Positions 2,982-64,000 are shown, counted from the first letter of the stretch. The stretch is DNA of 64,000 nucleotides from an uncultured Verrucomicrobiota bacterium (GCA_964541905.1 CAZIRU010000001.1:2870-66869); one strand, 5' to 3'. Translations and numbers: made by a program. The notes: generated by a model from the letters alone, not told the origin.

Positions 2982-2997
2982 TTTGTCGGAAAGTGTT

Positions 2998-4074
2998 CTA
3001 CTTCACAAGCTCGAACGTTCCGTTTTTGACATTCCAAATTTGCCACGAAGCCCCCGAAGGCGGAAGCGCTGTCCCAGTTGCGAAGATTTGCAGGCCCTCA
3101 AGCGAACCCCAAAAATGTTCCTGACGCGTGCGGTCGAGCTCAAGGAGCAGATCGTCGGCCAGAAGCAGAGGCGCAAGCGAGAGCTTTTCGCGCAGGATTT
3201 GCAAAGACGCAAGCTTCAGCGCCAAAACAAGCGAGAACTTTTGGCCTTCCGAAGCGTAGGCGGACGCCGGATGGCCGCTCAAGAGAAGCTCGAAGGAGTC
3301 GCGCTGGGGGCCGTAAAGGGTGTGGCCAACGAGGTTCTCCTTGGCGCGGCCCGTGCGCCACTTCTCAGCAAGAGTGTCCAAAGGAGTGCTGGGAGTGTAA
3401 ATAAAAGAGGGAGCTTCGTCGCTGGGGGCGAAACGTGCATAGACGGACGGAAGTGCCGCCGAAAGTAGCTCCGTGGCGCGCGTACGGAAGCGGATAAGCG
3501 TGGAAGCTTCGGAGAGTAATTGCGCCTCGAAGGCATCGAGCTGCGCATGATCGGCGGCAGAAAGAGTCGAGTCGCGGCCCAAAATGCGATTGCGGGAACG
3601 GAGCGCCTCCATATAGCCTGCAAGCGCTTCGGCGTAGGGAGGGTGGAGCTGCGCCAGGAGACTGTCGATTTCGTCGCGGCGCGCCGAGGGGCCATCGTAA
3701 ATAAGCGCGCGGTCGGCCAAGCTCAAGGGCACGACCGGAAAGAGCCCCGCAAGCTCGCGAGGGGAACGCAGGGTCTTTTGATCGTGGCGCAACTCAAGCG
3801 AGTCGGCGGAAAGGCAAAGACCCACCGAAGTGGCGTGGAGCTTTTCGTGATCGAAAGTCGCGCGAAGCACCGTACGCGGGGCTCCCTGGGAGATAAGCGG
3901 CGCGCGTTGGTGAGTGCGAAAACTGCGCGCGGAGACGACGAACGCAATGGCCTCGAGGAGATTCGTTTTGCCCTGCGCGTTGGGCCCCAAGAAAAAATGC
4001 CGAGGGCCCTCGAAGGAAAGCTGCGCCGCCGGAATATTGCGGAAAGATTCAAGCTCGAGGGAAAGAAGGCGCAC
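2998..4074 (-). CDS. recF: DNA replication and repair protein RecF
   Basis: N-terminus MRLLSLELESFRNI with Walker A GPNAQGKTNLLEAI, typical RecF; 358 aa. Confidence 0.85.
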   Translation of the reverse strand: MRLLSLELESFRNIPAAQLSFEGPRHFFLGPNAQGKTNLLEAIAFVVSARSFRTHQRAPLISQGAPRTVLRATFDHEKLHATSVGLCLSADSLELRHDQKTLRSPRELAGLFPVVPLSLADRALIYDGPSARRDEIDSLLAQLHPPYAEALAGYMEALRSRNRILGRDSTLSAADHAQLDAFEAQLLSEASTLIRFRTRATELLSAALPSVYARFAPSDEAPSFIYTPSTPLDTLAEKWRTGRAKENLVGHTLYGPQRDSFELLLSGHPASAYASEGQKFSLVLALKLASLQILREKLSLAPLLLADDLLLELDRTRQEHFWGSLEGLQIFATGTALPPSGASWQIWNVKNGTFELVK

Positions 4075-4083
4075 GAAAATAAG

Positions 4084-4851
4084 TTACGGGATGGTGAGGG
4101 TTTGGCCGAGCTTTAAACGCGCAGGATCGGGAAGCGTATCGCGGTTGGCTTCCGCAATCTCTTTCCAACGCGCGCCCGAACCGTAAACCTTTTTGGCGAT
4201 TACGAAAAGCGAGTCCCCCTGCACCACCGTGTATTGTCGCGCAGACGAAGAGGCCGATGTAGAAACGGCCGAGGCGGAAGCGGGAGCGGGAGCGCTCCCC
4301 TCCGGCGCACTCGCAGAGGTCGAAAGCTCGGTCAAGCTCCGGCGGGCTTGCTCGACATCCTTGTAGTGCTCGACCTCCGCACGCACCTGCATGAGCTCCG
4401 CCTTGAGCGATTCGTTTTCGGTGCGGGTTTTGTCGAGAAGCTCTTTCAAGTCGAGCTTGTCCACCTCGCCCCCAAAAGGAGACGCCGGAAGGCTGCGCGC
4501 AAACTCTTTTTTGGCGGTCACAATTAGCGCGCGCACCCGTTCGGCAGGCTCCGGCGAGGGCTTGGAACGCAGGTATTCGTTGAAGTGATAGATGGCCAAA
4601 ATCGGCTCGCCAAAACGATTCAAATAGAGCAGCCCCGCCTCAAGATGGCTCTCGGGGGCCTCCTGCCGCTTTTTGATGACGCTCAAAAAAGCCTCGAGGG
4701 CTTCTTCTGGACGGCCTTCCTTGAGGCGCTGCTGGCCCCGACGATAGGAAATCTCTTCCTTTTCCGCCAAAAGCGCGCCGCGCGAAGGAAAACATCCCGA
4801 CAGAAACACTGCCAGCAAAAAGAGCGTCAAAATTCTGGGCCGAAAAGGCAT
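4084..4851 (-). CDS. Secreted LysM domain protein with TPR-like region
   Basis: C-terminal LysM motif (YTVVQGDSLFVIAKKVYGSGARWKEIAEANRD); probable start at internal ATG 4851 giving signal peptide MPFRPRILTLFLLAVFLSGC; ORF track extends to 4986. Confidence 0.6.
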   Translation of the reverse strand: MPFRPRILTLFLLAVFLSGCFPSRGALLAEKEEISYRRGQQRLKEGRPEEALEAFLSVIKKRQEAPESHLEAGLLYLNRFGEPILAIYHFNEYLRSKPSPEPAERVRALIVTAKKEFARSLPASPFGGEVDKLDLKELLDKTRTENESLKAELMQVRAEVEHYKDVEQARRSLTELSTSASAPEGSAPAPASASAVSTSASSSARQYTVVQGDSLFVIAKKVYGSGARWKEIAEANRDTLPDPARLKLGQTLTIP

Positions 4852-34176: not shown

Positions 34177-36666
34177 CTAAAACAGTCCCATTTGCGCCTC
34201 GTCGCGCTTTTCGGATTTGGCTTTGGGAGCTTTGGCGGTCGCTTCGAGCGTCTCCAGCAGTTGATTAGCCCGCGCGATAATCGACGCAGGCAGCCCCGCC
34301 AACTGCGCCACATGCACGCCGTAGCTGCGATCGGCCGTACCCGGGACAACTTGGCGCACAAATATAATCTTATTGCCCCATTCTTTGACGGCGACCGTAT
34401 AGTTACGCAATCTTGGCAAGCTCTTCTCAAGCCGCGTCAGCTCATGATAATGCGTGGCAAAAAGCGTCCGAGACCCTTCGCGCGGGTGCGCATGCAGATA
34501 CTCCACACACGCCCACGCAATCGAGAGACCGTCATAAGTGCTTGTCCCTCTGCCAATTTCGTCCAAAACGATCAGGCTTTTTGGGGTCGCCGAACGTAAA
34601 ATATACGCCGTCTCGGTCATCTCGACCATGAAGGTCGATTCGCCTCGCGCGAGGGCATCCGACGAGCCAATCCGCGAGAAAATCCGATCCGCCAGCCCTA
34701 TTACGGCAGATTTTGCCGGAATAAATGACCCCACCTGCGCCATGAGCACTATGAGCGCTACCTGGCGAATATAAGTACTTTTCCCGGCCATATTCGGCCC
34801 GGTAATAAGCAAAATTTGCTCATTTTCCGACGCCATCCGCGTATCATTGGGCACGAAACGCTCATTTCCGTCCTCGCTTGCCGCAAGCGCCTGCTCCACA
34901 ACCGGATGGCGCCCCTCAACAATCTCCAAGCGCGCATCTTCGGTCAAGATGGGCCGCACATAGTTCCACTTGCGCGCATTAAAGGCAAAGGCGCAAAGCA
35001 AATCGCACCAGCTCAGGGCCGTTGCGGTTTGGCGGAGCGTATCGGCATGGGCAACGACCTCCGCCACAAGCCCCTCGAAAAGTTCAATTTCGCGCCGGAT
35101 GGCATCTCCCTCGGCCGAAAGGATCTCCTTTTGGCGCTCCTGCAACTCGGGAGTCACAAAACGCTCGCCATTCACCGTGGTTGAGCGCCGGATGTAATCG
35201 GTTGGGACACGCGCGAGGTTGGCCTTGGTAATTTCGATAAAAAACCCAAAATTCTGGTTGTAGCGCACCTTGAGGCTTTTTATCCCCGTGCGCTCCTGCT
35301 CCTGACGTTCCAGCTCGGCAATCCAAATCTTGTGATTGGCCGAGAGCGATTTGAGACGGTCCAGCTCGGCATCGAAGCCCGGACGAATGGCCCCACCCTC
35401 CGCAAGCGCATTATTGGGTTCCTCTTCCAGCGCCGCGCCCAGCCGCGTACAAAGAGCGGCATGCGGGTCTATGGCGCTCGAAATCCAGCCGACCGCCCCC
35501 GCCTCAAAGCGCTCCACCTGGGCCTTCAGCCGCGGAAGCGCCCGCAAAGTATCGCGCACGGCAGCCAGCTCCCGTGGAGTGCGCAGACGATTTTGCAGCC
35601 GTCCCAAAATCCGCTCCAGGTCGCGCAAAAGCGAAAGCAATTCGCGTAACTCGCGCAAGCCTTCGGGCTGAGAGGCAAAAGCCTCGACTGCCGCAAGTCG
35701 CGCCAAAAGAGTCGCCTTGTCACAGGAGGGCGCGCGCAACGTTCGCTCCAAAAGACGCCCGCCCGCAGCGGTCATGGTGGCGTCCATCGCATTTATGAGC
35801 GACCCCTGCCGGCCGCCATCGAGCGCGCGGAAAATTTCGAGCTGGCGCGCCGTATTGGCATCCAAAAGCAGCCGATTTTCGAAGCGGTGGAGCTTGAGCT
35901 CGCAAAGATTGGCCGGAGCCGCGCAAAGAGCCTGTTTGGCGTAAGAATAAAGGGCACCCGCAGGCCCAATCGCAGGATGGTCGTCGGGGAGCCCAAAACC
36001 CTTCAAAGTCGCAACGTGAAGGGCTTCGCACAAAATTCGCTTGGCGCCCAGAGGCTCGAAAAAGCTCTCTGGCAGCTCCGAGACCGAAAGCGAGGGCAGA
36101 TTTTCGATGAGTCGCTCCTTGATACCGGCGGGCAGGCCCGTTTCGGGGATGATGAGCTCGGCAGGCTGAAGCAGCGTCAAATAGGTTAGAAAGTCGTCAA
36201 TCGAGGCATGCGCGGCAGCCGCCCACTCGCCCGTTGAAAGCTCCATCCAGCTGGCCGCAAGGGTAAGTCCCGTGGAGCTTTTAGAGACAGAAAGAGCCAA
36301 AAGATATTGATTGTGAGAGGCTTCGAGATGTTCGGCATTTATCGCAGTGCCAGGGGTAAAAACGCGCGTCAGGGCGCGCTGGACAAGTTTGCCCGGACGC
36401 GCCTCTTCGAGCTGGTCGCAAACCGCAACCTTTTTGCCTGAATCAAGAAGCCTCTTGATGTAGCCCTCGGCGGCGTGGTGGGGAATACCGGCCATGGGGC
36501 GCTCGTGGCGGGCGGTGAGGGTCAGGCCGAGGATATTAGCCGCCATGCGCGCATCATCGTCGAACATCTCAAAAAAGTCCCCAAGCCTGAAAAGCAGGAG
36601 CGTTCCGGGCGCCAATTTGGCCTTAATCTCCTTGTATTGCCGGAACATGGGGGTGTCGTCGGACAT
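34177..36666 (-). CDS. mutS: DNA mismatch repair protein MutS
   Basis: Mismatch-binding N-domain (TPMFRQYKEIKAKLAPGTLLLFRLGDFFEMFDDDA), Walker A GPNMAGKSTYIRQ, Walker B LIVLDEIGRGTSTYDG. Confidence 0.95.
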   Translation of the reverse strand: MSDDTPMFRQYKEIKAKLAPGTLLLFRLGDFFEMFDDDARMAANILGLTLTARHERPMAGIPHHAAEGYIKRLLDSGKKVAVCDQLEEARPGKLVQRALTRVFTPGTAINAEHLEASHNQYLLALSVSKSSTGLTLAASWMELSTGEWAAAAHASIDDFLTYLTLLQPAELIIPETGLPAGIKERLIENLPSLSVSELPESFFEPLGAKRILCEALHVATLKGFGLPDDHPAIGPAGALYSYAKQALCAAPANLCELKLHRFENRLLLDANTARQLEIFRALDGGRQGSLINAMDATMTAAGGRLLERTLRAPSCDKATLLARLAAVEAFASQPEGLRELRELLSLLRDLERILGRLQNRLRTPRELAAVRDTLRALPRLKAQVERFEAGAVGWISSAIDPHAALCTRLGAALEEEPNNALAEGGAIRPGFDAELDRLKSLSANHKIWIAELERQEQERTGIKSLKVRYNQNFGFFIEITKANLARVPTDYIRRSTTVNGERFVTPELQERQKEILSAEGDAIRREIELFEGLVAEVVAHADTLRQTATALSWCDLLCAFAFNARKWNYVRPILTEDARLEIVEGRHPVVEQALAASEDGNERFVPNDTRMASENEQILLITGPNMAGKSTYIRQVALIVLMAQVGSFIPAKSAVIGLADRIFSRIGSSDALARGESTFMVEMTETAYILRSATPKSLIVLDEIGRGTSTYDGLSIAWACVEYLHAHPREGSRTLFATHYHELTRLEKSLPRLRNYTVAVKEWGNKIIFVRQVVPGTADRSYGVHVAQLAGLPASIIARANQLLETLEATAKAPKAKSEKRDEAQMGLF

Positions 36667-36726: not shown

Positions 36727-37488
36727 TTAGTTTGAATTTTGGAGGATCTGTTTCTTATAGAAATAGTCTTTTAAAAATGAATCCGAAACGTCTCTTTCTT
36801 CAAACATATAGATGCGCTGAGATGCCTGTTTGGCTAATTCCCTATTCAACTGACAAATAATTGTCGTTTGATTCTTGAAAACAATAGGCTCGTCTGTCTT
36901 AACTGCAATAAAAGCCTCCTTAGGCCCTAGCGGCAGTATAATCCGACATTTTGTGGCAAGTAAATCATTTGGCTTAAAGATAAGAGGATCATCGCCAATA
37001 ATAAGCCGATGCTTGCTTTTTCTGAAATCAAAAAAGCAAAACGCAAATGGCATCAGATCTTCTATGTTCTTCTCGTTAATAAGCTCTTTCAATTGATATT
37101 GCGAAAGTTTCTTTATTTGCTCAGCTGTAAGCATCGGAAGTCCTCTTAAATATTTTTCTCTAAGAATTTTTAATTTAGAGGGGTTTCTTAGCAACATATA
37201 CAAAACAAATCCAGCCCACATCTTTTTCTCTTCACCGAAATTCTTTATCTCAACAAGTCCATCTTTTCTCAACGACCTAATCTTTTCCAAAATCTTAGCC
37301 GCCTTGTCATCTAATTCTTTAAAGAAACCTTCAGTACTCCCATACAGATCTTCTTCAAAACAAATACCCTTGGGCCCCTTAGGTAATGATTTCCCATAGT
37401 CTTTATGGAAAATGCAGATGTTATTTCCTTTCGCTGGGTTTCGCCAGCTTTCTAGTATAAATCTTGGAATATAATGATCTTTGGCCAT
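36727..37488 (-). CDS. DUF4238-like protein on a low-GC islet (candidate single-gene anti-phage defense)
   Basis: Low-GC ORF (about 35% GC by eye) in a ~60% GC background; N-terminus MAKDHYIPRFILESW matches my recollection of the DUF4238 HY-x-P-x-F signature; Lys/Glu/Ile-rich composition typical of foreign genes. Confidence 0.5.
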   Translation of the reverse strand: MAKDHYIPRFILESWRNPAKGNNICIFHKDYGKSLPKGPKGICFEEDLYGSTEGFFKELDDKAAKILEKIRSLRKDGLVEIKNFGEEKKMWAGFVLYMLLRNPSKLKILREKYLRGLPMLTAEQIKKLSQYQLKELINEKNIEDLMPFAFCFFDFRKSKHRLIIGDDPLIFKPNDLLATKCRIILPLGPKEAFIAVKTDEPIVFKNQTTIICQLNRELAKQASQRIYMFEERDVSDSFLKDYFYKKQILQNSN

Positions 37489-37641: not shown

Positions 37642-38697
37642 TTATCCTTCGTCCTCGTAACCCTCGGCGGCTCGCGCGTTCGGGTGATCGGCCTTCGGTT
37701 TTTCCATGCTCGGGCGGGCGTAAAGGCGCTCATGGGGGGCTTCGGGGAAAACTTCGTCGGCGCGGGGCAAGAACCAGTCCTTCCCTAATTGTAAAAGCTC
37801 GTCGGGCGTCCGAGCTTCGCGCATGCACTTGAGAAAAATCCCATTCGGATCAACCGAAAGCCCAAGGAAATTCAAGTAGCCCTTCATGGGGCCTATGGAG
37901 GCGCAATTTTTTACAATCCAACAGAAGTAGTCGTAGGCATCGGCAAAGGTTGACGCCTTGAAGGCGCGGCCTTCACGAAGCGCGGCAGCTTTGGCGAAAA
38001 TCCACGGATAGCGAATCGCCGCACGCCCCACCGAAACACCCCAAGCCCCCGTTTCTTTTACAAGTGTAAAACCTTGCGATGCCGTCTGGATGTCGCCATT
38101 GAGGATAACCGGGCACGGAGCCGCCGCAACAATTTGGCGCGCCAACTCGAAACGTACAGGGGCGTGGTAGCCATCCGCAACGGTCCGCAGGTGCACCGTA
38201 CAGAAGTCAACCTGATATTTATCAAGGAGTTGCAAAACACCCTGCCAAGCGTCCGGCTCGCGGAAACCCAGACGCAATTTGACGCTCAAGGTCAAAGGAG
38301 GTGCTACCGCCTCGCGCAAGGCCGCAAGGATGCGCTCAACCGTCTCCAGCTCGCGCAAAAGGCCGCCACCTACATTCTGTTTGTAAATTTTCGGAGCCGG
38401 ACAACCTAGGTTGAGATCAACGCCAGAAACAGGCAGCTTTTGCAGGAATTCAGCGCCTTTCTTAAAATATTCCGGTTCGCGGCCAATCAATTGAGCAATG
38501 ATGCGACATTTTGTCCCATACTCCTCGATGAAGGAAAGCCAGTCCTTATCCCACGCGGTATGCTCGTGGACCCGAACGTATTCGATGTGAAAGAGTTCTG
38601 GAGCGCCAACTTGCGCGATATAGCGCCCGAGGCGCACAAAATCGCACATCGGCGCCAAAGAAAAAGGACTTTGCAGATCGAAGGGCGGCGGGCGCAT
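37642..38697 (-). CDS. tRNA-dihydrouridine synthase (Dus family)
   Basis: TIM-barrel Dus motifs SLAPMCDFVRLG and DLNLGCPAPKI; start at ATG 38697. Confidence 0.8.
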   Translation of the reverse strand: MRPPPFDLQSPFSLAPMCDFVRLGRYIAQVGAPELFHIEYVRVHEHTAWDKDWLSFIEEYGTKCRIIAQLIGREPEYFKKGAEFLQKLPVSGVDLNLGCPAPKIYKQNVGGGLLRELETVERILAALREAVAPPLTLSVKLRLGFREPDAWQGVLQLLDKYQVDFCTVHLRTVADGYHAPVRFELARQIVAAAPCPVILNGDIQTASQGFTLVKETGAWGVSVGRAAIRYPWIFAKAAALREGRAFKASTFADAYDYFCWIVKNCASIGPMKGYLNFLGLSVDPNGIFLKCMREARTPDELLQLGKDWFLPRADEVFPEAPHERLYARPSMEKPKADHPNARAAEGYEDEG

Positions 38698-38736
38698 TAG
38701 ACAAAGCTTAGACGAAAAAAACGATAGCGGCAATTC

Positions 38737-56963: not shown

Positions 56964-57037
56964 CGGGCTGTAGCGTAGCCTGGTAGCGCGCTTGCATGGG
57001 GTGCAAGAGGTCGCGAGTTCGAATCTCGCCAGCCCGA
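56964..57037 (+). tRNA. tRNA-Pro (anticodon GGG)
   Basis: Acceptor CGGGCTG/CAGCCCG, D-loop AGCCTGGTA, anticodon stem CTTGC/GCAAG with loop ATGGGGT, T-arm GCGAGTTCGAATCTCGC; TTGACT-17-ATAATA promoter-like element upstream. Confidence 0.8.
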
Positions 57038-57052
57038 AAATCTTTCATCTCT

Positions 57053-57439
57053 ATGCCCAAAGAAATAAAGCTCGTCATTGAAATTAAAAGGTCAGCCTCA
57101 GACGTATTTCAGTTTACAACCAATCCGCAAAATACGCCTCTTTGGATAGATTCTATCGTAGTTGAAAAAGCTTCAGAGTTCCCGCCCAAAACAGGAACTG
57201 TTTACAAAAACAAAGGCAGCGAGGATGTTTGGAGTACCTATGTTGTTGTAGATTGCCAGCCCGATAAGCTCTTTGAGCTGGCCATGACAAATTCAGACTA
57301 TCACGTCCGCTACACTTATACGCCATTGGACGCAGAAACCACTTTATTGGAATATTTCGAGTGGGTGGATCAAGGAGAGCTTCAAGCCCCCTTCACTAAC
57401 GAAACACTACAAAAGTTAAAGAAAGTAATTGAAGCATAG
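57053..57439 (+). CDS. SRPBCC-family small protein
   Basis: 128-aa ORF starting immediately after tRNA-Pro; mixed beta/alpha pattern consistent with SRPBCC/polyketide-cyclase-like fold; lower GC than core genes; assignment by fold-level resemblance only. Confidence 0.4.
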   Translation: MPKEIKLVIEIKRSASDVFQFTTNPQNTPLWIDSIVVEKASEFPPKTGTVYKNKGSEDVWSTYVVVDCQPDKLFELAMTNSDYHVRYTYTPLDAETTLLEYFEWVDQGELQAPFTNETLQKLKKVIEA

Positions 57440-57669
57440 CAAGCTTTCGAATCTGGGGCCTTGAGCTTTTTCACGGATGGAAAATAGGCATTGACGAGCC
57501 GCCTTCTGCGCGACAGAATATCAGCCATGGGAAAACTTAGCGATTTACTCTCTCCAAATAAAAGCTGGGGTGTCCAGACTGTGCAAGATTTTGTGCGCCT
57601 GCCCGGGCTCATCACTCCGCTTATGTTTGCTGCTCCGAGCTTGCGCCGCTCACTATAAACGATTTTGTA

Positions 57670-58654: not shown

Positions 58655-59077
58655 CTAGAATACCGGACGGAAAACAACCTTTGACCCCGCTTTGGCCTGG
58701 ACATTGCTGCCCTGCTGCCAAACTTGGTCGTTGAGGAGGACCTTGAATTCGAGATTCTCTTTACTGTCGCTCGTCCATACCCACGTGCGGTTTTGATATT
58801 CCATCGGCTGGCTTTTCTCCCAGCTTAAGCCGGCCCCCTGCCCGCGGATGCTGAGGCTATTGCCATAGCCCACGTCGATCTGGGCAACCACTTGGGTGGC
58901 GCCGGAAGTTGACTTGGAGGCTTTCGGCGCAAACGGGTTCATTTTGGAAAAGTTGGACTTCTGCGATTGCGGTTTTTCGGGCAGTTCGGCAACAGCAATA
59001 GAGCTTTGGCAGGAGGATCCTGCTTGGGAGGCGCAGCAAGAAGATTTCTTGCTATTGGATTTTTTAGGAGCTGGCAT
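58655..59077 (-). CDS. Hypothetical protein with Lys/Ser-rich N-terminus
   Basis: N-terminal low-complexity basic region (PKKSNSKKSS...) and Trp-containing beta-rich C-terminal half; no family recognised. Confidence 0.3.
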   Translation of the reverse strand: MPAPKKSNSKKSSCCASQAGSSCQSSIAVAELPEKPQSQKSNFSKMNPFAPKASKSTSGATQVVAQIDVGYGNSLSIRGQGAGLSWEKSQPMEYQNRTWVWTSDSKENLEFKVLLNDQVWQQGSNVQAKAGSKVVFRPVF

Positions 59078-59178
59078 AAGATTCTATTGGGTTTATCGTC
59101 TTTTAAACACCCCTACGGCCAATTTGGCAAGCGATTTCGAGAGATTTTCTTTGGGAAGTTCCGACCGGAGGGGGCTAT

Positions 59179-59412
59179 TTAGAGCTTCTTGTATAAGTTT
59201 GACACAGTCGTATTTAAAACTTTTGCAAAAACAACAACCTCTCTATCAAGCACGTTTCTGAATTGAGATTCTATTTGGGCCATCGTATCGCGAGTTATAT
59301 CCAGCCCATTTAGCTGGCATTTTACAGCCAACTCGCGCTGCGTAAGCCCAATAGCAATTCTATGCTTGCGGATTATCGGGCCGACAATATTTCGGTCTTT
59401 TTTCTTTTTCAT
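59179..59412 (-). CDS. XRE-family helix-turn-helix transcriptional regulator
   Basis: HTH_XRE pattern IRKHRIAIGLTQRELAVKCQLNGLDITRDTMAQIE; 77 aa; AT-rich context. Confidence 0.6.
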   Translation of the reverse strand: MKKKKDRNIVGPIIRKHRIAIGLTQRELAVKCQLNGLDITRDTMAQIESQFRNVLDREVVVFAKVLNTTVSNLYKKL

Positions 59413-59492
59413 AGCGATTCGCCAATGTTATCAGAGAATCACTATTGACTTGTGAACGTGGAATCACACAATGGAATTACTTCCAGCGAAGT

Positions 59493-59621
59493 ATGAGTTT
59501 CATAACGGCCATAAAATGTATCGCCTCTATATTGTTTTGGAGCTTTATTGTGCTCCTAATTATAGCGGTACTTTTGTTTCCTTTCTATCTGATAGGATAT
59601 TTTCACAAGGACGATGATTGA
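59493..59621 (+). CDS. Putative small hydrophobic peptide (42 aa) divergent from the XRE regulator
   Basis: MSFITAIKCIASILFWSFIVLLIIAVLLFPFYLIGYFHKDDD: one TM helix with acidic tail; not in ORF track (below 60 aa); could be a chance ORF in AT-rich DNA. Confidence 0.25.
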   Translation: MSFITAIKCIASILFWSFIVLLIIAVLLFPFYLIGYFHKDDD

Positions 59622-59652
59622 CTTGTTTTTGGGGCCGACCCACGCTTTGCTT

Positions 59653-59741
59653 ACCAGCCGCATTGACAAGATCTCCCCTTTGCCTTTAGGCTATTTATCT
59701 CTTTAGCGGGGTCTTAGCTTTCGTTGGTAGAGCGACTGGTT
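59653..59741 (+). repeat. Degenerate partial duplicate of tRNA-Ala upstream region plus 5-prime half
   Basis: About 89 nt matching 59827-59914 with roughly 6 differences; includes TTGACA and the tRNA 5-prime half through the anticodon stem (GGGGTCTTAGCT...GAGCGACTGGTT). Confidence 0.7.
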
Positions 59742-59881
59742 GATTCGGCCCGCCGGCCTCACCCCTTCGGGGCGCTCCGCTCACGCTGCGCGTCTGATGG
59801 CGTACTCGCCATCATCGCCAAGGCTCACCAGCCGCATTGACAAGACCGCCCCTTTGCCTTTAGGCTATTCATCTCTTTAGA

Positions 59882-59954
59882 GGGGTCTTAGCTCAGTTGG
59901 TAGAGCGACTGGTTCGCAATCAGTAGGTCAGGGGTTCGAATCCCCTAGGCTCCA
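59882..59954 (+). tRNA. tRNA-Ala (anticodon CGC)
   Basis: Acceptor GGGGTCT/AGGCTCC with the G3:U70 pair characteristic of tRNA-Ala, D-arm GCTCAGTTGGTAGAGC, anticodon loop TTCGCAA, T-arm AGGGGTTCGAATCCCCT. Confidence 0.85.
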
Positions 59955-59964
59955 CAGAGCTTCT

Positions 59965-60363
59965 CTACACTTCCAGCAGGATTTTCTCGACCTTCTTCGC
60001 TTTGTTGCAGGTTCGTTCTACGCCCCTCGTCGCCTCATTGAAGCTTCTCTGATCTATTCCGAGGGCCTTCACCCAATCCGAAACACGCTTGAAGGGAATT
60101 TTACGGTCTAATGCTGCCGGAAGATGAATGCAGCTCGAACGCCCACCCGCTTGTACGGAAGGCAATTTACCAGCCAGCTTGTCCGGCAGCTGCAACCTTA
60201 CACCCTTCCCTGCTGGAATAATCGCAACACCGAGGCTTCCCAAAATTTGTTGCACTCTTTCTCGCTTTATTTGAATGGGTAAGATATGCACTATTGTAAA
60301 GACAATTCTAGAGCTTTTTAGAAAAATTCTCTCAAATTCTACCCTACCCTCTCCGCAAGCCAC
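59965..60363 (-). CDS. Hypothetical protein adjacent to tRNA-Ala
   Basis: 132-aa ORF, no motif recognised; 25-nt overlap with the glyQS start makes its true start uncertain. Confidence 0.25.
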   Translation of the reverse strand: MACGEGRVEFERIFLKSSRIVFTIVHILPIQIKRERVQQILGSLGVAIIPAGKGVRLQLPDKLAGKLPSVQAGGRSSCIHLPAALDRKIPFKRVSDWVKALGIDQRSFNEATRGVERTCNKAKKVEKILLEV

Positions 60364-61853
60364 CCCGCCAGCTCCTCAACGTTAATTCTCTCCTGTTGGG
60401 TTGTGTCACGGTCGCGAAGGGTGACAGTGCCGTCCTCCAAAGTCTGGAAGTCCACCGTCACACACCAAGGCGTCCCGATTTCGTCCTGACGGCGGTAGCG
60501 TTTGCCCACGTTGCCCGAGTCGTCGTAATCGGTGCGGAAACGCCCGCGCAATCGGGCAAAAATCTCCTCAGCCTTCTTCGTGAGCTCCGGCTTATTTTTA
60601 AGGAGCGGAAAAACCGCCACTTTATAGGGCGCAATTGAGGGCTTGAGGCGCAAAACCACGCGTTTTTCGCCATCCACCTCGTCCTCGGCATAGGCCGAGA
60701 GCAGCACCACCAAGACCGCCCGATCAACCCCCCACGAAGGCTCAATCACATGGGGCGTATAGCGGCGCTTTTGCGCCTCGTCAAAATACTCGATCGGCTT
60801 GCCAATTGCTTTGCCGTGAGCGTCCAAATCAAAACTCCCGCGCGCGGCAATCCCCATAAGCTCTTGTTTTCCAAACGGATACGCAAAGAATAAATCCGTG
60901 CAAGCTCGGGCGTAGTGCGCAAGCTCTTGCTTTTCGTAGGCATGTTCGCTCAAGCGCGTGGGGTCCACGCCTATCGAAATATACCAAGCCTTCGCCGCCG
61001 CAACCCATTCCGCGTAAGCCTTTTGCCAAGCCGCCTCCGAATCGTCCACAAAATACTCGATTTCCATCTGCTCAAACTCGCGGCTACGATAGATGAAATT
61101 GCGCGGAGTAATTTCATTGCGAAACGCCTTGCCTATCTGGGCAATTCCGAACGGAATTTTTACGCGCGCCGTCTCAAGAACATTCTTGAAATTTGTAAAA
61201 ATCCCGCCAGCCGTCTCCGGCCGCAAATACGCCTCGGCCGTCGCATCCTCCATCGCCCCGACAAAGGTTTTGAACATCATATTGAACTTGCGGGCGGGGG
61301 TCAGGCTCCCGGGCTTGCCGGTGGCCGGCGAGGGAATAAGAGAAATTTGCTCGGGAGTAGCCTCAGTAAAGGGACGCAAGACAATCGGCTCAAGCGCCCC
61401 CTGTTTTTGGGCCTTGCGCTTGATTTTATCCGCCATCTCTTCGGCCTTGCCCTGCGCGTTTTCCTCGTCAAGCAGGCTCACATACCCAAGTGTCTCGCCA
61501 GCAACCACGACCGGAGCAAAGAAGAGCTGGTCCGCCCGAAAACGCGCCTTGGTTTCCTTGTCATCCACCATCGGATCGTTAAAATTCGCCAAGTGCCCCG
61601 AAGCCTCCCAAAGGCGCGGGTTCTGAATAATCGCCGAATCCAACCCCACCATATCGTCTCGGCTGTGGACAAACGTCCGCCACCAATGGGCCTTGATGTT
61701 GTTTTTGAGCTCAACACCCAAGGGGCCATAATCAAAAAAACCGTTCAGACCGCCATAAATTTCGGAAGCCTGAAAGATGAACCCCTTGCGTTTACAAAAG
61801 GAGGTGAGCGTTTCCATGCTCACGGGGCTTGTTTGGACGGCAGTTTCGGTCAT
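60339..61853 (-). CDS. glyQS: Glycine--tRNA ligase (dimeric class II type)
   Basis: Class II GlyRS motifs FQASEIYGGLNGFFDYGPLG and anticodon-binding C-terminus; alternative start at 61817. Confidence 0.9.
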   Translation of the reverse strand: MTETAVQTSPVSMETLTSFCKRKGFIFQASEIYGGLNGFFDYGPLGVELKNNIKAHWWRTFVHSRDDMVGLDSAIIQNPRLWEASGHLANFNDPMVDDKETKARFRADQLFFAPVVVAGETLGYVSLLDEENAQGKAEEMADKIKRKAQKQGALEPIVLRPFTEATPEQISLIPSPATGKPGSLTPARKFNMMFKTFVGAMEDATAEAYLRPETAGGIFTNFKNVLETARVKIPFGIAQIGKAFRNEITPRNFIYRSREFEQMEIEYFVDDSEAAWQKAYAEWVAAAKAWYISIGVDPTRLSEHAYEKQELAHYARACTDLFFAYPFGKQELMGIAARGSFDLDAHGKAIGKPIEYFDEAQKRRYTPHVIEPSWGVDRAVLVVLLSAYAEDEVDGEKRVVLRLKPSIAPYKVAVFPLLKNKPELTKKAEEIFARLRGRFRTDYDDSGNVGKRYRRQDEIGTPWCVTVDFQTLEDGTVTLRDRDTTQQERINVEELAGWLAERVG

Positions 61854-62022
61854 AGGTGCGCATTATAGCGCACCCGTGGCCCCAACGTCAATCGGCTTGC
61901 GAAGGCACGGCGCGGTTCACGAGATTATACAGTTTCTTTCGTACAATGGGTTGCGCGCCATACAGAATATTAATTCTTTTTAGCTCATTTTTGACGCTTT
62001 TTTACAATTGTGAAACCCTGTC

Positions 62023-62053
62023 TTGACAGTTCGCCAGGTTGGGTGTATATAAT
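62023..62053 (+). promoter_or_regulatory. Putative sigma70-type promoter and ribosome-binding site of kdsB
   Basis: TTGACA (62023-62028) - 17 nt - TATATA/TATAAT, then AAGGAA 3 nt before the ATG at 62062. Confidence 0.45.
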
Positions 62054-62061
62054 AAGGAAAT

Positions 62062-62823
62062 ATGTTGGCTATTATAGTCCCTGTGCGTCGGGCTTCGACG
62101 CGCCTGCCCGATAAGCCGCTTTACCCGATCGCGGGCAAGCCCCTTGTCCTTCATGTAGCTGAACGCCTCAAAGCCATTGCCGGCGAAATCCCGACTTACT
62201 TCGCCGTTGATAACGAGGAGGTTATGTCAGTTCTGGAACAGGCTGGGTTCAAGGCCATCATGACCGATCCAGAGCTGCCCAACGGCACCTGCCGCATCGC
62301 AGCGGCCAACAAACAAATCGGCGCTACGCAAATAATTAACTGTCAAGGAGATGAGCCGCAAATTCAGCGTGTGCATATTGACCTGCTTGCCGACAGCCTC
62401 AAGCGCGGGGCTCCCATGGCCACTTTGGCGCTCAATTCTTTTACAGACGAGGAGCTCTTAAACCCCAACCGGCCGAAAGTCGTCGTGGGGGCTTCGGGAC
62501 AGGCGCTTTACTTTAGCCGCTCGATTTTGCCCTACGATCGCTCGGCAAAGGATGGCGTCCTTTCAGCCGACAGCCGGAACCTTGCCATGGGGCGCATTGG
62601 TTTGCATCAGGGCTTTTACGCCTACACCTCCGCGTTTTTGGAGCAATATGTAAATTTGCCGGCAACTCCCTTGGAGCAGATCGAAAAGCTTGAGCAGCTC
62701 CGCGTGATTGAGCACGGCTATCCGATCATGGTGCGCTTTAATAATTTCCCGACGCAGGGCATTGATACGATAGAAGATGTGAGGGCCTACGAAAAAAAAT
62801 TTGAACGGGTGGTAGTGGGGTAA
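62062..62823 (+). CDS. kdsB: 3-deoxy-manno-octulosonate cytidylyltransferase (CMP-Kdo synthetase)
   Basis: N-terminus IIVPVRRASTRLPDKPL and downstream motifs consistent with KdsB. Confidence 0.85.
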   Translation: MLAIIVPVRRASTRLPDKPLYPIAGKPLVLHVAERLKAIAGEIPTYFAVDNEEVMSVLEQAGFKAIMTDPELPNGTCRIAAANKQIGATQIINCQGDEPQIQRVHIDLLADSLKRGAPMATLALNSFTDEELLNPNRPKVVVGASGQALYFSRSILPYDRSAKDGVLSADSRNLAMGRIGLHQGFYAYTSAFLEQYVNLPATPLEQIEKLEQLRVIEHGYPIMVRFNNFPTQGIDTIEDVRAYEKKFERVVVG

Positions 62824-62888
62824 GCGCTGCCGCCCGGGGGGAAAGTTTAGCACTAGCAAAAAATATCCCTTAGGGATAAGATGCCGCC

Positions 62889-64000
62889 ATGACAGAAGTT
62901 GAAACCGAAGCGCCCCTTACAGATTCCCTTATTCCTCGATACAGCACACCCGCCGAAGTAAAGCCTGAGGATGCTTTTGTTGGCGATCTTTTCAACCGAA
63001 AACCTTTAGCAGAACGGCTTATCCATCTTATCGGAAGAATGAAAGATGGGTTTGTACTCTCGGTTGATTCAGGCTGGGGTTCAGGGAAAACGTATTTTGC
63101 CAGACACACGGTTGCTTTGATGAAAAAACAACCAGAGGATAAAAAAGACACCAAGACTAAAGTTGTCTATCTCGATGCTTTCAAAAATGATTTTTTAGAA
63201 GAACCGTTTTTGCTTATAGCGGCGGAGATTTTAAAAGCCATCGGTAAAAATGATGAAGCCGAAAAGGCTATTGGACGCATTATTCGTTCAGGGATGTTAG
63301 TTACTGGAAAAGAAATAGGATTACAGCTCGTCAAACATTGGACTGGCGCCGATCTTCAAGATGCTATTGATAAAGTTACAGATCAGATAGAAAGAGACAA
63401 AGATATAGCCACACAACTCAAAGAAAGATACGAAGCCGCAACATCAACCATCACGGATTTCAAAACCGAACTCAACAAGGCGCTGCAAGGCAAACAGCTT
63501 GTTATTTTCATTGATGAACTTGACCGCTGCAAACCCCCATTCTCCGTAAAACTTCTTGAGTATCTCAAGCATCTCTTCGACGTTAAGGGTCTTGTCTTCG
63601 TTTTAATGATTAATCGAGAAGCCCTCGTCAGTTCTATCGCAGGCGTTTACCACCTCGACAAACCAGCCGCCAGCGAGTATCTAAACAAGTTTATAAATCT
63701 AGATTTCAAGATCCCTGTAATTACTACAAGCAACTATAAAAACAAAGGTTCTGATGATTATATTGCTTTCTGTAGAGCTTTTTTTCAAAGAAATTTCAAA
63801 CAGGACACCCAGGCAAAACAGCTAGATCATTTTATACAATCCTTTTCATATTTTTGTGAGTATTATAAACTTCCTCTTAGAAAAATAGAGACGGGAGCAA
63901 TAAACTGGATCACAATCACTCCGCGTTTCGAAGAGACCAATAAGGGCGTTTGTGAAGACATTTGCTTTCGCCGAATAAGTCTATGTTCTTGGTTTGTCGC
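62889..64000 (+). CDS. KAP-family P-loop NTPase, 3-prime truncated by window end
   Basis: Open frame from ATG 62889 to the window end (370 codons, no stop; not in ORF track). Walker A VDSGWGSGKT, Walker B LVIFIDELDRC; low GC (about 40%). Confidence 0.6.
   Translation, partial: MTEVETEAPLTDSLIPRYSTPAEVKPEDAFVGDLFNRKPLAERLIHLIGRMKDGFVLSVDSGWGSGKTYFARHTVALMKKQPEDKKDTKTKVVYLDAFKNDFLEEPFLLIAAEILKAIGKNDEAEKAIGRIIRSGMLVTGKEIGLQLVKHWTGADLQDAIDKVTDQIERDKDIATQLKERYEAATSTITDFKTELNKALQGKQLVIFIDELDRCKPPFSVKLLEYLKHLFDVKGLVFVLMINREALVSSIAGVYHLDKPAASEYLNKFINLDFKIPVITTSNYKNKGSDDYIAFCRAFFQRNFKQDTQAKQLDHFIQSFSYFCEYYKLPLRKIETGAINWITITPRFEETNKGVCEDICFRRISLCSWFV

Follow-up and report, generated by a model that had tools for sequence, protein, structure and literature searches.

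Does the abrupt fall in GC content at the right-hand edge of a 64,000-nucleotide (nt) stretch of DNA from an uncultured Verrucomicrobiota bacterium (GCA_964541905.1 CAZIRU010000001.1:2870-66869; the whole stretch is called the window here) mark the first gene of a defence island, or does it mark a single foreign gene? The gene in question lies directly after kdsB, encodes a KAP-family P-loop NTPase, and is cut off by the window end, and a preliminary description of the sequence took it for the start of an accessory or defence island continuing outward. We find instead a one-gene, roughly 1.6-kb low-GC insertion without partner genes in an Opitutales-like Verrucomicrobiota genome, and the gene that it carries is very probably a lone, horizontally acquired KAP NTPase of 511 amino acids (aa) of the type that PADLOC calls PDC-S20.

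A low-GC reading frame begins directly after kdsB

The left border of the insertion is formed by kdsB (62062-62823, plus strand), a core gene for CMP-KDO synthetase. The preliminary description had placed kdsB here, and the curated NCBIfam cut-offs bear this out: the open reading frame (ORF) scores 220.8 bits against NF003952 (cut-off 193) and 186.1 bits against TIGR00466 (cut-off 155.2), and it also matches Pfam CTP_transf_3. Its GC content is 0.545, and its GC content at third codon positions (GC3) is 0.632. A 65-nt spacer (62824-62888) separates kdsB from the KAP gene. The initial ~18 nt of this spacer are GC-rich and host-like, and AT-richness sets in at about 62842, which places the left junction of the insert inside the spacer. 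No sigma-70-like promoter was found on the plus strand of the spacer.

The KAP gene starts with the ATG at 62889, which is the first start 3′ of an in-frame TAA at 62877-62879, and it runs on the plus strand through 370 stop-free codons to the window end at 64000, so that the window holds codons 1-370 of 511, as read from the translation and from matches to Pfam, PADLOC, and PHROG. Chance is ruled out for this visible ORF fragment by its matches to Pfam (E 6.5e-37) and PADLOC (E 5e-69). In 400-nt windows, GC falls from 0.54 at 62400-62799 to 0.375-0.45 from 62800 on, against 0.55 for the window as a whole. The complete gene has a GC content of 0.406 and a GC3 of 0.377, and its neighbours have values of about 0.55 and about 0.63-0.66, respectively. 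Both the drop to about 40% GC immediately after kdsB and the open frame reaching the window end are therefore as first described.

The insertion consists of one gene

We followed the gene past the window on a Logan contig of 14,136 bp, L003, which overlaps window positions 59899-64000. There are 0 mismatches over the 4102 overlapping bases, and thus L003 is the same locus as the window. The KAP gene occupies 2991-4526 of this contig, with its stop at window-equivalent position 64424, 424 nt past the window. The part visible in the window encodes a sequence 100% identical to the corresponding part of P0001, a protein of 511 aa that is alone in its cluster. A DNA_alkylation (DNA-alkylation-repair) gene, convergent to the KAP gene (L003 4541-5359, window-equivalent 64439-65257), ends 14 bases past the KAP stop. 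It is followed by a NUDIX gene (L003 5356-5853, window-equivalent 65254-65751), a 5′-3′ exonuclease gene, a secretin gene with four small genes, an acetyl-CoA carboxylase carboxyltransferase gene, and others. These downstream genes have host composition, and the GC content of the other 16 genes on L003 is 0.48-0.58. No integrase was found near the KAP gene on L003, and among the downstream genes of that contig there was no meaningful PADLOC defence match, the sole match being that of the NUDIX gene to PDC-S07 through the Nudix box only.

The gene order in relatives shows what the site looks like when it is empty. The named kdsB homologues, about 48-52% identical, all come from Opitutales and related Verrucomicrobiota, and metagenomic kdsB relatives reach 65-80%, with orthologues at 67-80% holding the same position. 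On related Verrucomicrobiota contigs whose kdsB is 79% (L004), 71% (L005 and L006), and 67% (L007) identical, kdsB is directly followed by the convergent DNA_alkylation gene, with gaps of 91, 27, and -4 bp. In these relatives, the 5′-3′ exonuclease gene comes next after DNA_alkylation, and L004 also carries the same secretin cluster. From this adjacency, we conclude that the KAP gene is a lineage-specific single-gene insertion into a convergent intergenic spacer. On either side of it, kdsB and DNA_alkylation both retain an intact protein C-terminus. At the borders of the insert, we found no direct or inverted repeats of the kind left by a target-site duplication or terminal inverted repeats; the only 10-nt exact repeat sits within the two genes, away from the junctions.

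These observations bear directly on the proposal that the KAP gene is the first member of a multi-gene accessory or defence island with effector or partner genes just past the window. The low-GC block does start abruptly after kdsB and reaches the window end, and some KAP NTPases do act with partners, such as QatA in Qat and RdrA in RADAR, to which P0001 shows a weak match and a fold match, respectively. However, the stop lies 424 nt past the window and is followed by convergent genes of host composition (DNA_alkylation, NUDIX, 5′-3′ exonuclease, and secretin), the same downstream order is found without the KAP gene in relatives, and no neighbour is conserved across 48 clusters of KAP homologues. 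An island would consist of several adjacent foreign defence or mobile genes, and what is present is a single low-GC gene flanked by core genes. The proposal would require L003 to be chimeric, which is unlikely given a perfect match to the window and a gene order that agrees with relatives on both sides. The preliminary description had suggested extending the sequence downstream, and had named a stop shortly past 64000 with ordinary genes after it as the outcome that would speak against an island; this is the outcome that we obtained. Neither the island continuing past the window nor the partner genes expected just outside it were found, and we regard a multi-gene island as extremely improbable.

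The DNA beside the insertion shows variation of its own. The NUDIX gene is absent from L004 and L007, and in L005 a glyoxalase-family gene takes its place; since its presence differs among relatives, the stretch adjoining the KAP insertion is itself a small variable spot. In this genome, the DNA_alkylation protein has an extra ~30 aa (LPPIEKVPPQRRPKGVLPATSRALCVAGQRR) compared with L004 and L005, and that of L007 has a different, larger insertion close to that site. With respect to kdsB, one relative (contig of P0129, JGI 3300075153) carries two adjacent kdsB-like genes in tandem, which are both 250 aa long and match CTP_transf_3.

P0001 is a soluble KAP NTPase with intact motifs

The family assignment made in the preliminary description holds. 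P0001 matches Pfam KAP_NTPase (PF07693) with 127.4 bits against a gathering cut-off of 20 (E 8e-37), with residues 37-286 aligned to positions 1-236 of the 293-position profile. Judged from the profile matches, the assignment to PADLOC PDC-S20 and to PHROG phrog_8614 appears far stronger than that to Pfam. All four PDC-S20 profiles match (E 1.5e-68, 6.5e-60, 3e-36, and 1.5e-32), the best of them over positions 8-333 of 464, which is 70% of the profile and 65% of the protein, and phrog_8614, annotated as 'unknown function', matches with E 4.6e-59.

The catalytic motifs of a P-loop NTPase are present in the motif search and in the family alignment. The Walker A motif VDSGWGSGKT (residues 59-68; 63063-63092, plus strand) is where it had been reported, but its pattern is xGWGxGKT and not the GxWGxGKT form first given. 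The Walker B motif LVIFIDELDRC (residues 204-214; 63498-63530, plus strand) is exactly as reported. In an alignment of P0001 with 26 homologues, there are 23 invariant positions, and P0001 retains all 23. They include W63, G64, G66, and K67 in Walker A; D209, E210, L211, D212, R213, and C214 in Walker B; P216; and R331. The last of these (codon 63879-63881, plus strand; family motif LSLRDIE) is the sole invariant residue of the helical domain that follows the NTPase core, and is a candidate sensor-2 or arginine-finger residue.

The AlphaFold2 model of P0001 has a mean predicted local distance difference test score (pLDDT) of 73.8 and a predicted template modelling score (pTM) of 0.72. The P-loop core, a helical domain at 289-384, and the terminal helix are modelled with confidence, and residues 413-491 are poorly modelled; the terminal helix aligns with the ...IDL motif at the C-terminus of the family. 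In the model, an alpha-helical insert (residues ~97-202; 63177-63494, plus strand) separates the Walker B strand from the strand that comes after Walker A, with helices at 106-118, 122-138, 141-151, 156-166, and 171-199 and low confidence at 137-156. Membrane-bound relatives carry transmembrane helices at that insert position; such helices are typical of many KAP members but are missing from PifA, and so they are not strictly defining. Here the five-helix insert between the Walker motifs is present, which argues against the housekeeping ATPase that had been raised as the alternative, but it is soluble and amphipathic and does not span the membrane. A Kyte-Doolittle scan of the protein in 19-residue windows found no segment of transmembrane-grade hydrophobicity: the maximum of 1.68 falls on the conserved core strand LVFVLMINRE, which has charged residues inside it, and the maxima within the insert are 1.04 and 0.74. 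The Pfam and PADLOC profiles detected no known effector domain (nuclease, TIR, protease, or membrane module) in P0001.

We also looked for structural relatives. Searching the PDB by sequence with the family profile yielded no meaningful match; the best was to XPD with E 0.009. A fold search gave RdrA, the RADAR ATPase, as the nearest solved fold (PDB 8fnt, 8fnu, and 8hr8). The structural relatives RdrA and ORC/Cdc6 are distant, at 10-14% identity.

The C-terminal tail is divergent

To place P0001 within its family, we scanned 1.84 billion representative proteins (clustered at 50% identity) with phmmer and obtained 12,396 matches at E <= 1e-3, 6,673 at E <= 1e-10, and 318 at E <= 1e-30. The best non-self matches are 36-43% identical, and their alignments stop at query residues 277-441. 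The matches to PDC-S20 and phrog_8614 stop at residue ~352-381 and leave the C-terminal ~160 aa uncovered. This C-terminal segment showed no significant similarity to 261 family members (best E 0.017). A word-indexed search of its 159 aa (353-511) against a set of 5.8 billion proteins also returned nothing, which is a weak negative because the same search missed the parent P0001 as well, although that set contains it. No closer relative of P0001 was found in JGI metagenome contigs, and a scan of genome contigs for close relatives returned two distant matches only, at 29-32% identity. P0001 is longer than most, with 511 aa against a median of 446 aa across 84 homologous loci.

A gene without a close relative might be the inactive or decaying remnant of an earlier transfer, with no current function. 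Its singleton cluster and the lack of a detectable homologue for the C-terminal ~160 aa are consistent with this, as are the composition, which has not drifted to that of the host, and the absence of a promoter-like site on the KAP gene strand. On the other hand, the frame is intact over 511 codons in 40% GC DNA, where stops arise easily, every family-invariant residue is kept, and the terminal helix is confidently modelled and falls on the family motif. The unchanged composition fits a recent acquisition equally well. A relic is thus, in our judgment, improbable.

The palindrome before the start codon

The preliminary description had noted a hairpin, ATCCC-TTA-GGGAT, 15 nt upstream of the ATG. 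The hairpin exists, at 62865-62877, but its distance from the ATG is 11 nt; in a 6-bp version, TATCCC-TTA-GGGATA, it spans 62864-62878, where the full palindrome can be written TATCCCT-T-AGGGATA. The sequence occurs at chance level. Shuffled sequence folds as well as the spacer does (z = 0.02 on the plus strand and 0.51 on the minus strand). A terminator scan flagged the hairpin on the minus strand only, where TTTTTT lies 3′ of it, and 2 terminator-like sites of such kind were observed versus 2.1 expected in shuffles. The 15-nt palindrome occurs once in the window. On the basis of these fold scores, the wrong strand, the chance frequency, and the single copy, we rejected a role as a regulatory or terminator element as unsupported, and the hairpin is probably not meaningful.

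In L004, the spacer between kdsB and DNA_alkylation (3228-3268) contains a strong 16-bp hairpin (-28.3 kcal/mol, z = -4.78), which is probably a bidirectional terminator for the convergent genes. The kdsB/DNA_alkylation junction of the window genome holds nothing comparable.

Homologue contexts and proposed function

What might this single gene do? The genomic surroundings of its homologues bear on this question. P0003 lies within a type I restriction-modification operon (hsdM-hsdS-x-KAP-x-hsdR) with a resolvase adjoining, P0004 (Iodobacter) lies 3′ of an MNT/HepT pair, P0014 adjoins an integrase/AlpA/DUF927 island, and P0020 (Geoanaerobacter) lies 3′ of a TIR protein. Relatives occur in 5 phage records, 55 plasmid records, and 381 IMG/VR loci. 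We surveyed neighbours at the 84 loci, which form 48 clusters at 70% identity, one cluster holding 23 of the 84. Any one neighbour family is found in at most 9 of the 48 clusters, and the recurrent neighbours are integrase, CI repressor, CII/CP76, GPD baseplate protein, and DNA methylase. In a Vibrio prophage relative, the KAP gene is about 3 kb from the integrase, and the cI-integrase slot of P2-related Vibrionaceae prophages is reported to be a defence hotspot (PMC9122126). Viral copies lie nearer to contig ends than a uniform distribution would place them (median relative distance 0.29, Kolmogorov-Smirnov p 0.004, 54 contigs >= 20 kb), but we give this skew little weight because many of the loci are related prophages. 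Taken together, these contexts support a stand-alone, mobile, defence-associated gene. The earlier statement that KAP NTPases reside on mobile or defence loci is thus borne out for this family by its PDC-S20 and phrog_8614 assignments and by the prophage, plasmid, and restriction-modification settings.

From these contexts, we slightly favour a defence role for the KAP gene over its absence, and, when that role is combined with the gene anatomy above, a stand-alone protein acting against phages or other mobile elements is the reading that we consider probable. In such a protein, the N-terminal NTPase would be an ATP-driven switch, consistent with its intact Walker A and Walker B motifs and family-invariant residues. 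It may assemble into an oligomer on the model of RdrA rings and ORC/Cdc6. The all-helical, fast-diverging C-terminal half (residues ~290-511) could be the recogniser of an invader component. Because there is no nuclease, TIR, protease, or membrane module, we ascribe the output to the ATPase assembly itself, which might sequester or remodel a phage or host complex or might consume nucleotides. This specific combination of an ATP-driven oligomer, a C-terminal sensor, and assembly as output is tentative, and we think it rather doubtful in its details.

Several points weigh against a stand-alone defence protein. The copy studied here lies outside any defence island or recognisable mobile element, among core genes and without an integrase or flanking repeats. 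The nearest homologue is only ~36-43% identical, so that function is not simply transferable. PDC-S20 is itself an unvalidated 'guilt-by-embedding' candidate (PMC12988326). KAP proteins with validated defence activity are described as having transmembrane helices, long C-terminal effector regions, or both, and P0001 has neither. With respect to mechanism, oligomerisation is suggested by structural relatives that are distant (10-14% identity), and pLDDT is below 50 for residues 413-491, so that the C-terminal sensor role is speculation.

A rival reading gives the gene a different function, in which P0001 would be a non-defence ATPase of a mobile element or of the cell, such as an assembly regulator, a phage or plasmid maintenance factor, or an addiction-type selfish gene, with its association with defence loci reflecting shared variable regions. 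phrog_8614 is annotated as 'unknown function', PDC-S20 is not validated, the gene has core neighbours with no defence genes nearby and no effector domain, and KAP proteins were at first suggested to regulate NTP-dependent complex assembly in general (as relayed by 10.1101/2022.08.21.504612 and PMC13001434). Set against this are the homologue inside a type I restriction-modification operon, the many homologues in the cI-int prophage slot that carries defence systems (PMC9122126), the patchy distribution across phyla at low identity, as is seen for defence genes, and three independent experimental reports of single-protein P-loop NTPases of the KAP and YobI families in phage defence (PMC12632615, PMC13586616, and PMC13001434). 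We therefore consider a non-defence function unlikely, and a stand-alone defence protein remains the reading that we prefer.

Other low-GC features of the window

Within the window, a second gene stands out by its composition. A gene for a 253-aa DUF4238 protein (36727-37488, minus strand; Pfam E 1.3e-25) has a GC content of about 0.36 and is flanked by mutS (34177-36666) and by a gene for dihydrouridine synthase (37642-38733), each with 0.55-0.6 GC. It has no PADLOC match and resembles the KAP gene in appearing to be a single-gene insertion.

Two further dips lie near tRNA genes. A low-GC patch at 59000-59800 (0.40-0.44) contains an ORF for a 77-aa helix-turn-helix protein (HTH_31/HTH_3; 59179-59412, minus strand) with weak matches to PADLOC 'Control_protein' (E 4e-4), just upstream of tRNA-Ala(cgc) at 59882-59955; this patch may be the remnant of an integrated element. 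GC also dips to 0.445 at 56964-57600, directly after tRNA-Pro(ggg) (56964-57037), where an SRPBCC/Polyketide_cyc2 ORF is listed at 56996-57439 with a start that overlaps the tRNA gene.

Comparison with known systems

The closest known group is PDC-S20/phrog_8614 itself. PDCs are PADLOC's unpublished 'guilt-by-embedding' candidates, mostly unvalidated (PMC12988326), and in the literature that we searched there was no mention of PDC-S20 by name and no experimental validation of the family. P0001 shares the ~450-aa layout of a KAP NTPase followed by a helical C-terminal domain and the single-gene arrangement without a conserved partner: this copy stands alone among core genes, and the 48 clusters show no obligatory neighbour. 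It differs in being longer, in having a C-terminal ~160 aa without similarity, and in being at most ~43% identical to any member.

Three systems matched P0001 by profile or by fold. RdrA is 11-14% identical to P0001 but has ~800-850 aa and works with a partner adenosine deaminase, RdrB; no RdrB gene lies next to the KAP gene on L003, no PADLOC RdrA profile matches at E <= 0.01, and membership in RADAR was rejected on both grounds. QatA matches are weak (PADLOC E 2.1e-11; 38.8 bits in NCBIfam, far below the cut-off of 600) and cover residues 152-282 only, and no QatB, QatC, or QatD gene lies nearby on L003. With a score below the cut-off and the neighbour genes absent, membership in Qat (QatABCD) was also rejected. 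PifA, which excludes T7, belongs to the KAP family, has no transmembrane helices, and acts with membrane depolarisation and nucleotide leakage (PMC13001434). P0001 resembles it as a KAP NTPase lacking transmembrane helices but shows no sign of membrane association, and the match to PADLOC PifA of the F plasmid (E 4.9e-15, 53.2 bits) covers only profile positions 24-295 of 720, the NTPase part, so we rejected P0001 as a PifA orthologue. The matches to PifA and QatA thus reflect the shared NTPase core only.

We also compared P0001 with single-protein systems. Tmn belongs to the related YobI family and forms a membrane decamer, for which a phage protein is the trigger (PMC13001434). Like P0001, it is a single-gene P-loop NTPase whose P-loop domain carries its insert at the corresponding position; it serves in defence and has a helical sensor arm, as P0001 may too. 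It has two transmembrane helices inside that domain where the insert of P0001 is soluble. With no transmembrane helices and no Tmn profile match, membership of P0001 in Tmn/YobI was rejected. EF_KAP and its relatives are single-protein KAP NTPases with uncharacterised C-terminal regions that protect Enterococcus faecalis against phages in a Walker B-dependent, non-abortive manner (PMC12632615), and Reve is a single-gene system with a KAP-family P-loop domain, found in P4 satellite hotspots, that gives strong protection (PMC13586616). Both share with P0001 the plan of one gene with a KAP P-loop domain and then a region without a known domain. In EF_KAP, two transmembrane helices lie at the N-terminus and the C-terminal region is 322 aa long, whereas P0001 has no transmembrane helix and a shorter tail; EF_KAP and Reve are set apart from P0001 here by their descriptions and not by their sequences.

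Single-protein KAP NTPases have only lately been shown to act in phage defence, and the present locus opens no new category. What it adds is a case in which an abrupt fall in GC at the end of a window signalled one inserted gene, whose site is cleanly empty in relatives, and not an island. It also provides, from an under-studied phylum, a KAP NTPase of the PDC-S20/phrog_8614 type whose locus has clear boundaries, in a large family of ~12,400 representatives whose function is a candidate only. As a soluble KAP NTPase without an effector domain, P0001 would be a reasonable subject for the question of how an ATPase alone could yield immunity. That it provides working one-protein immunity in Verrucomicrobiota by a novel route, with its soluble NTPase and orphan ~160-aa tail, is quite unlikely on present indications; one possibility for such a route is an ATP-driven ring that acts directly on a phage complex for replication or packaging, trapping it or taking it apart. 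If this were true, the kdsB/alkylation-repair junction together with the DUF4238 gene would suggest a lineage that gathers defence genes as scattered singletons and not as islands. The route would differ from that of PifA and Tmn, which involve the membrane, from that of RADAR, which uses a deaminase partner, and from that of the STAND/Avs proteins, which carry a fused nuclease or protease.
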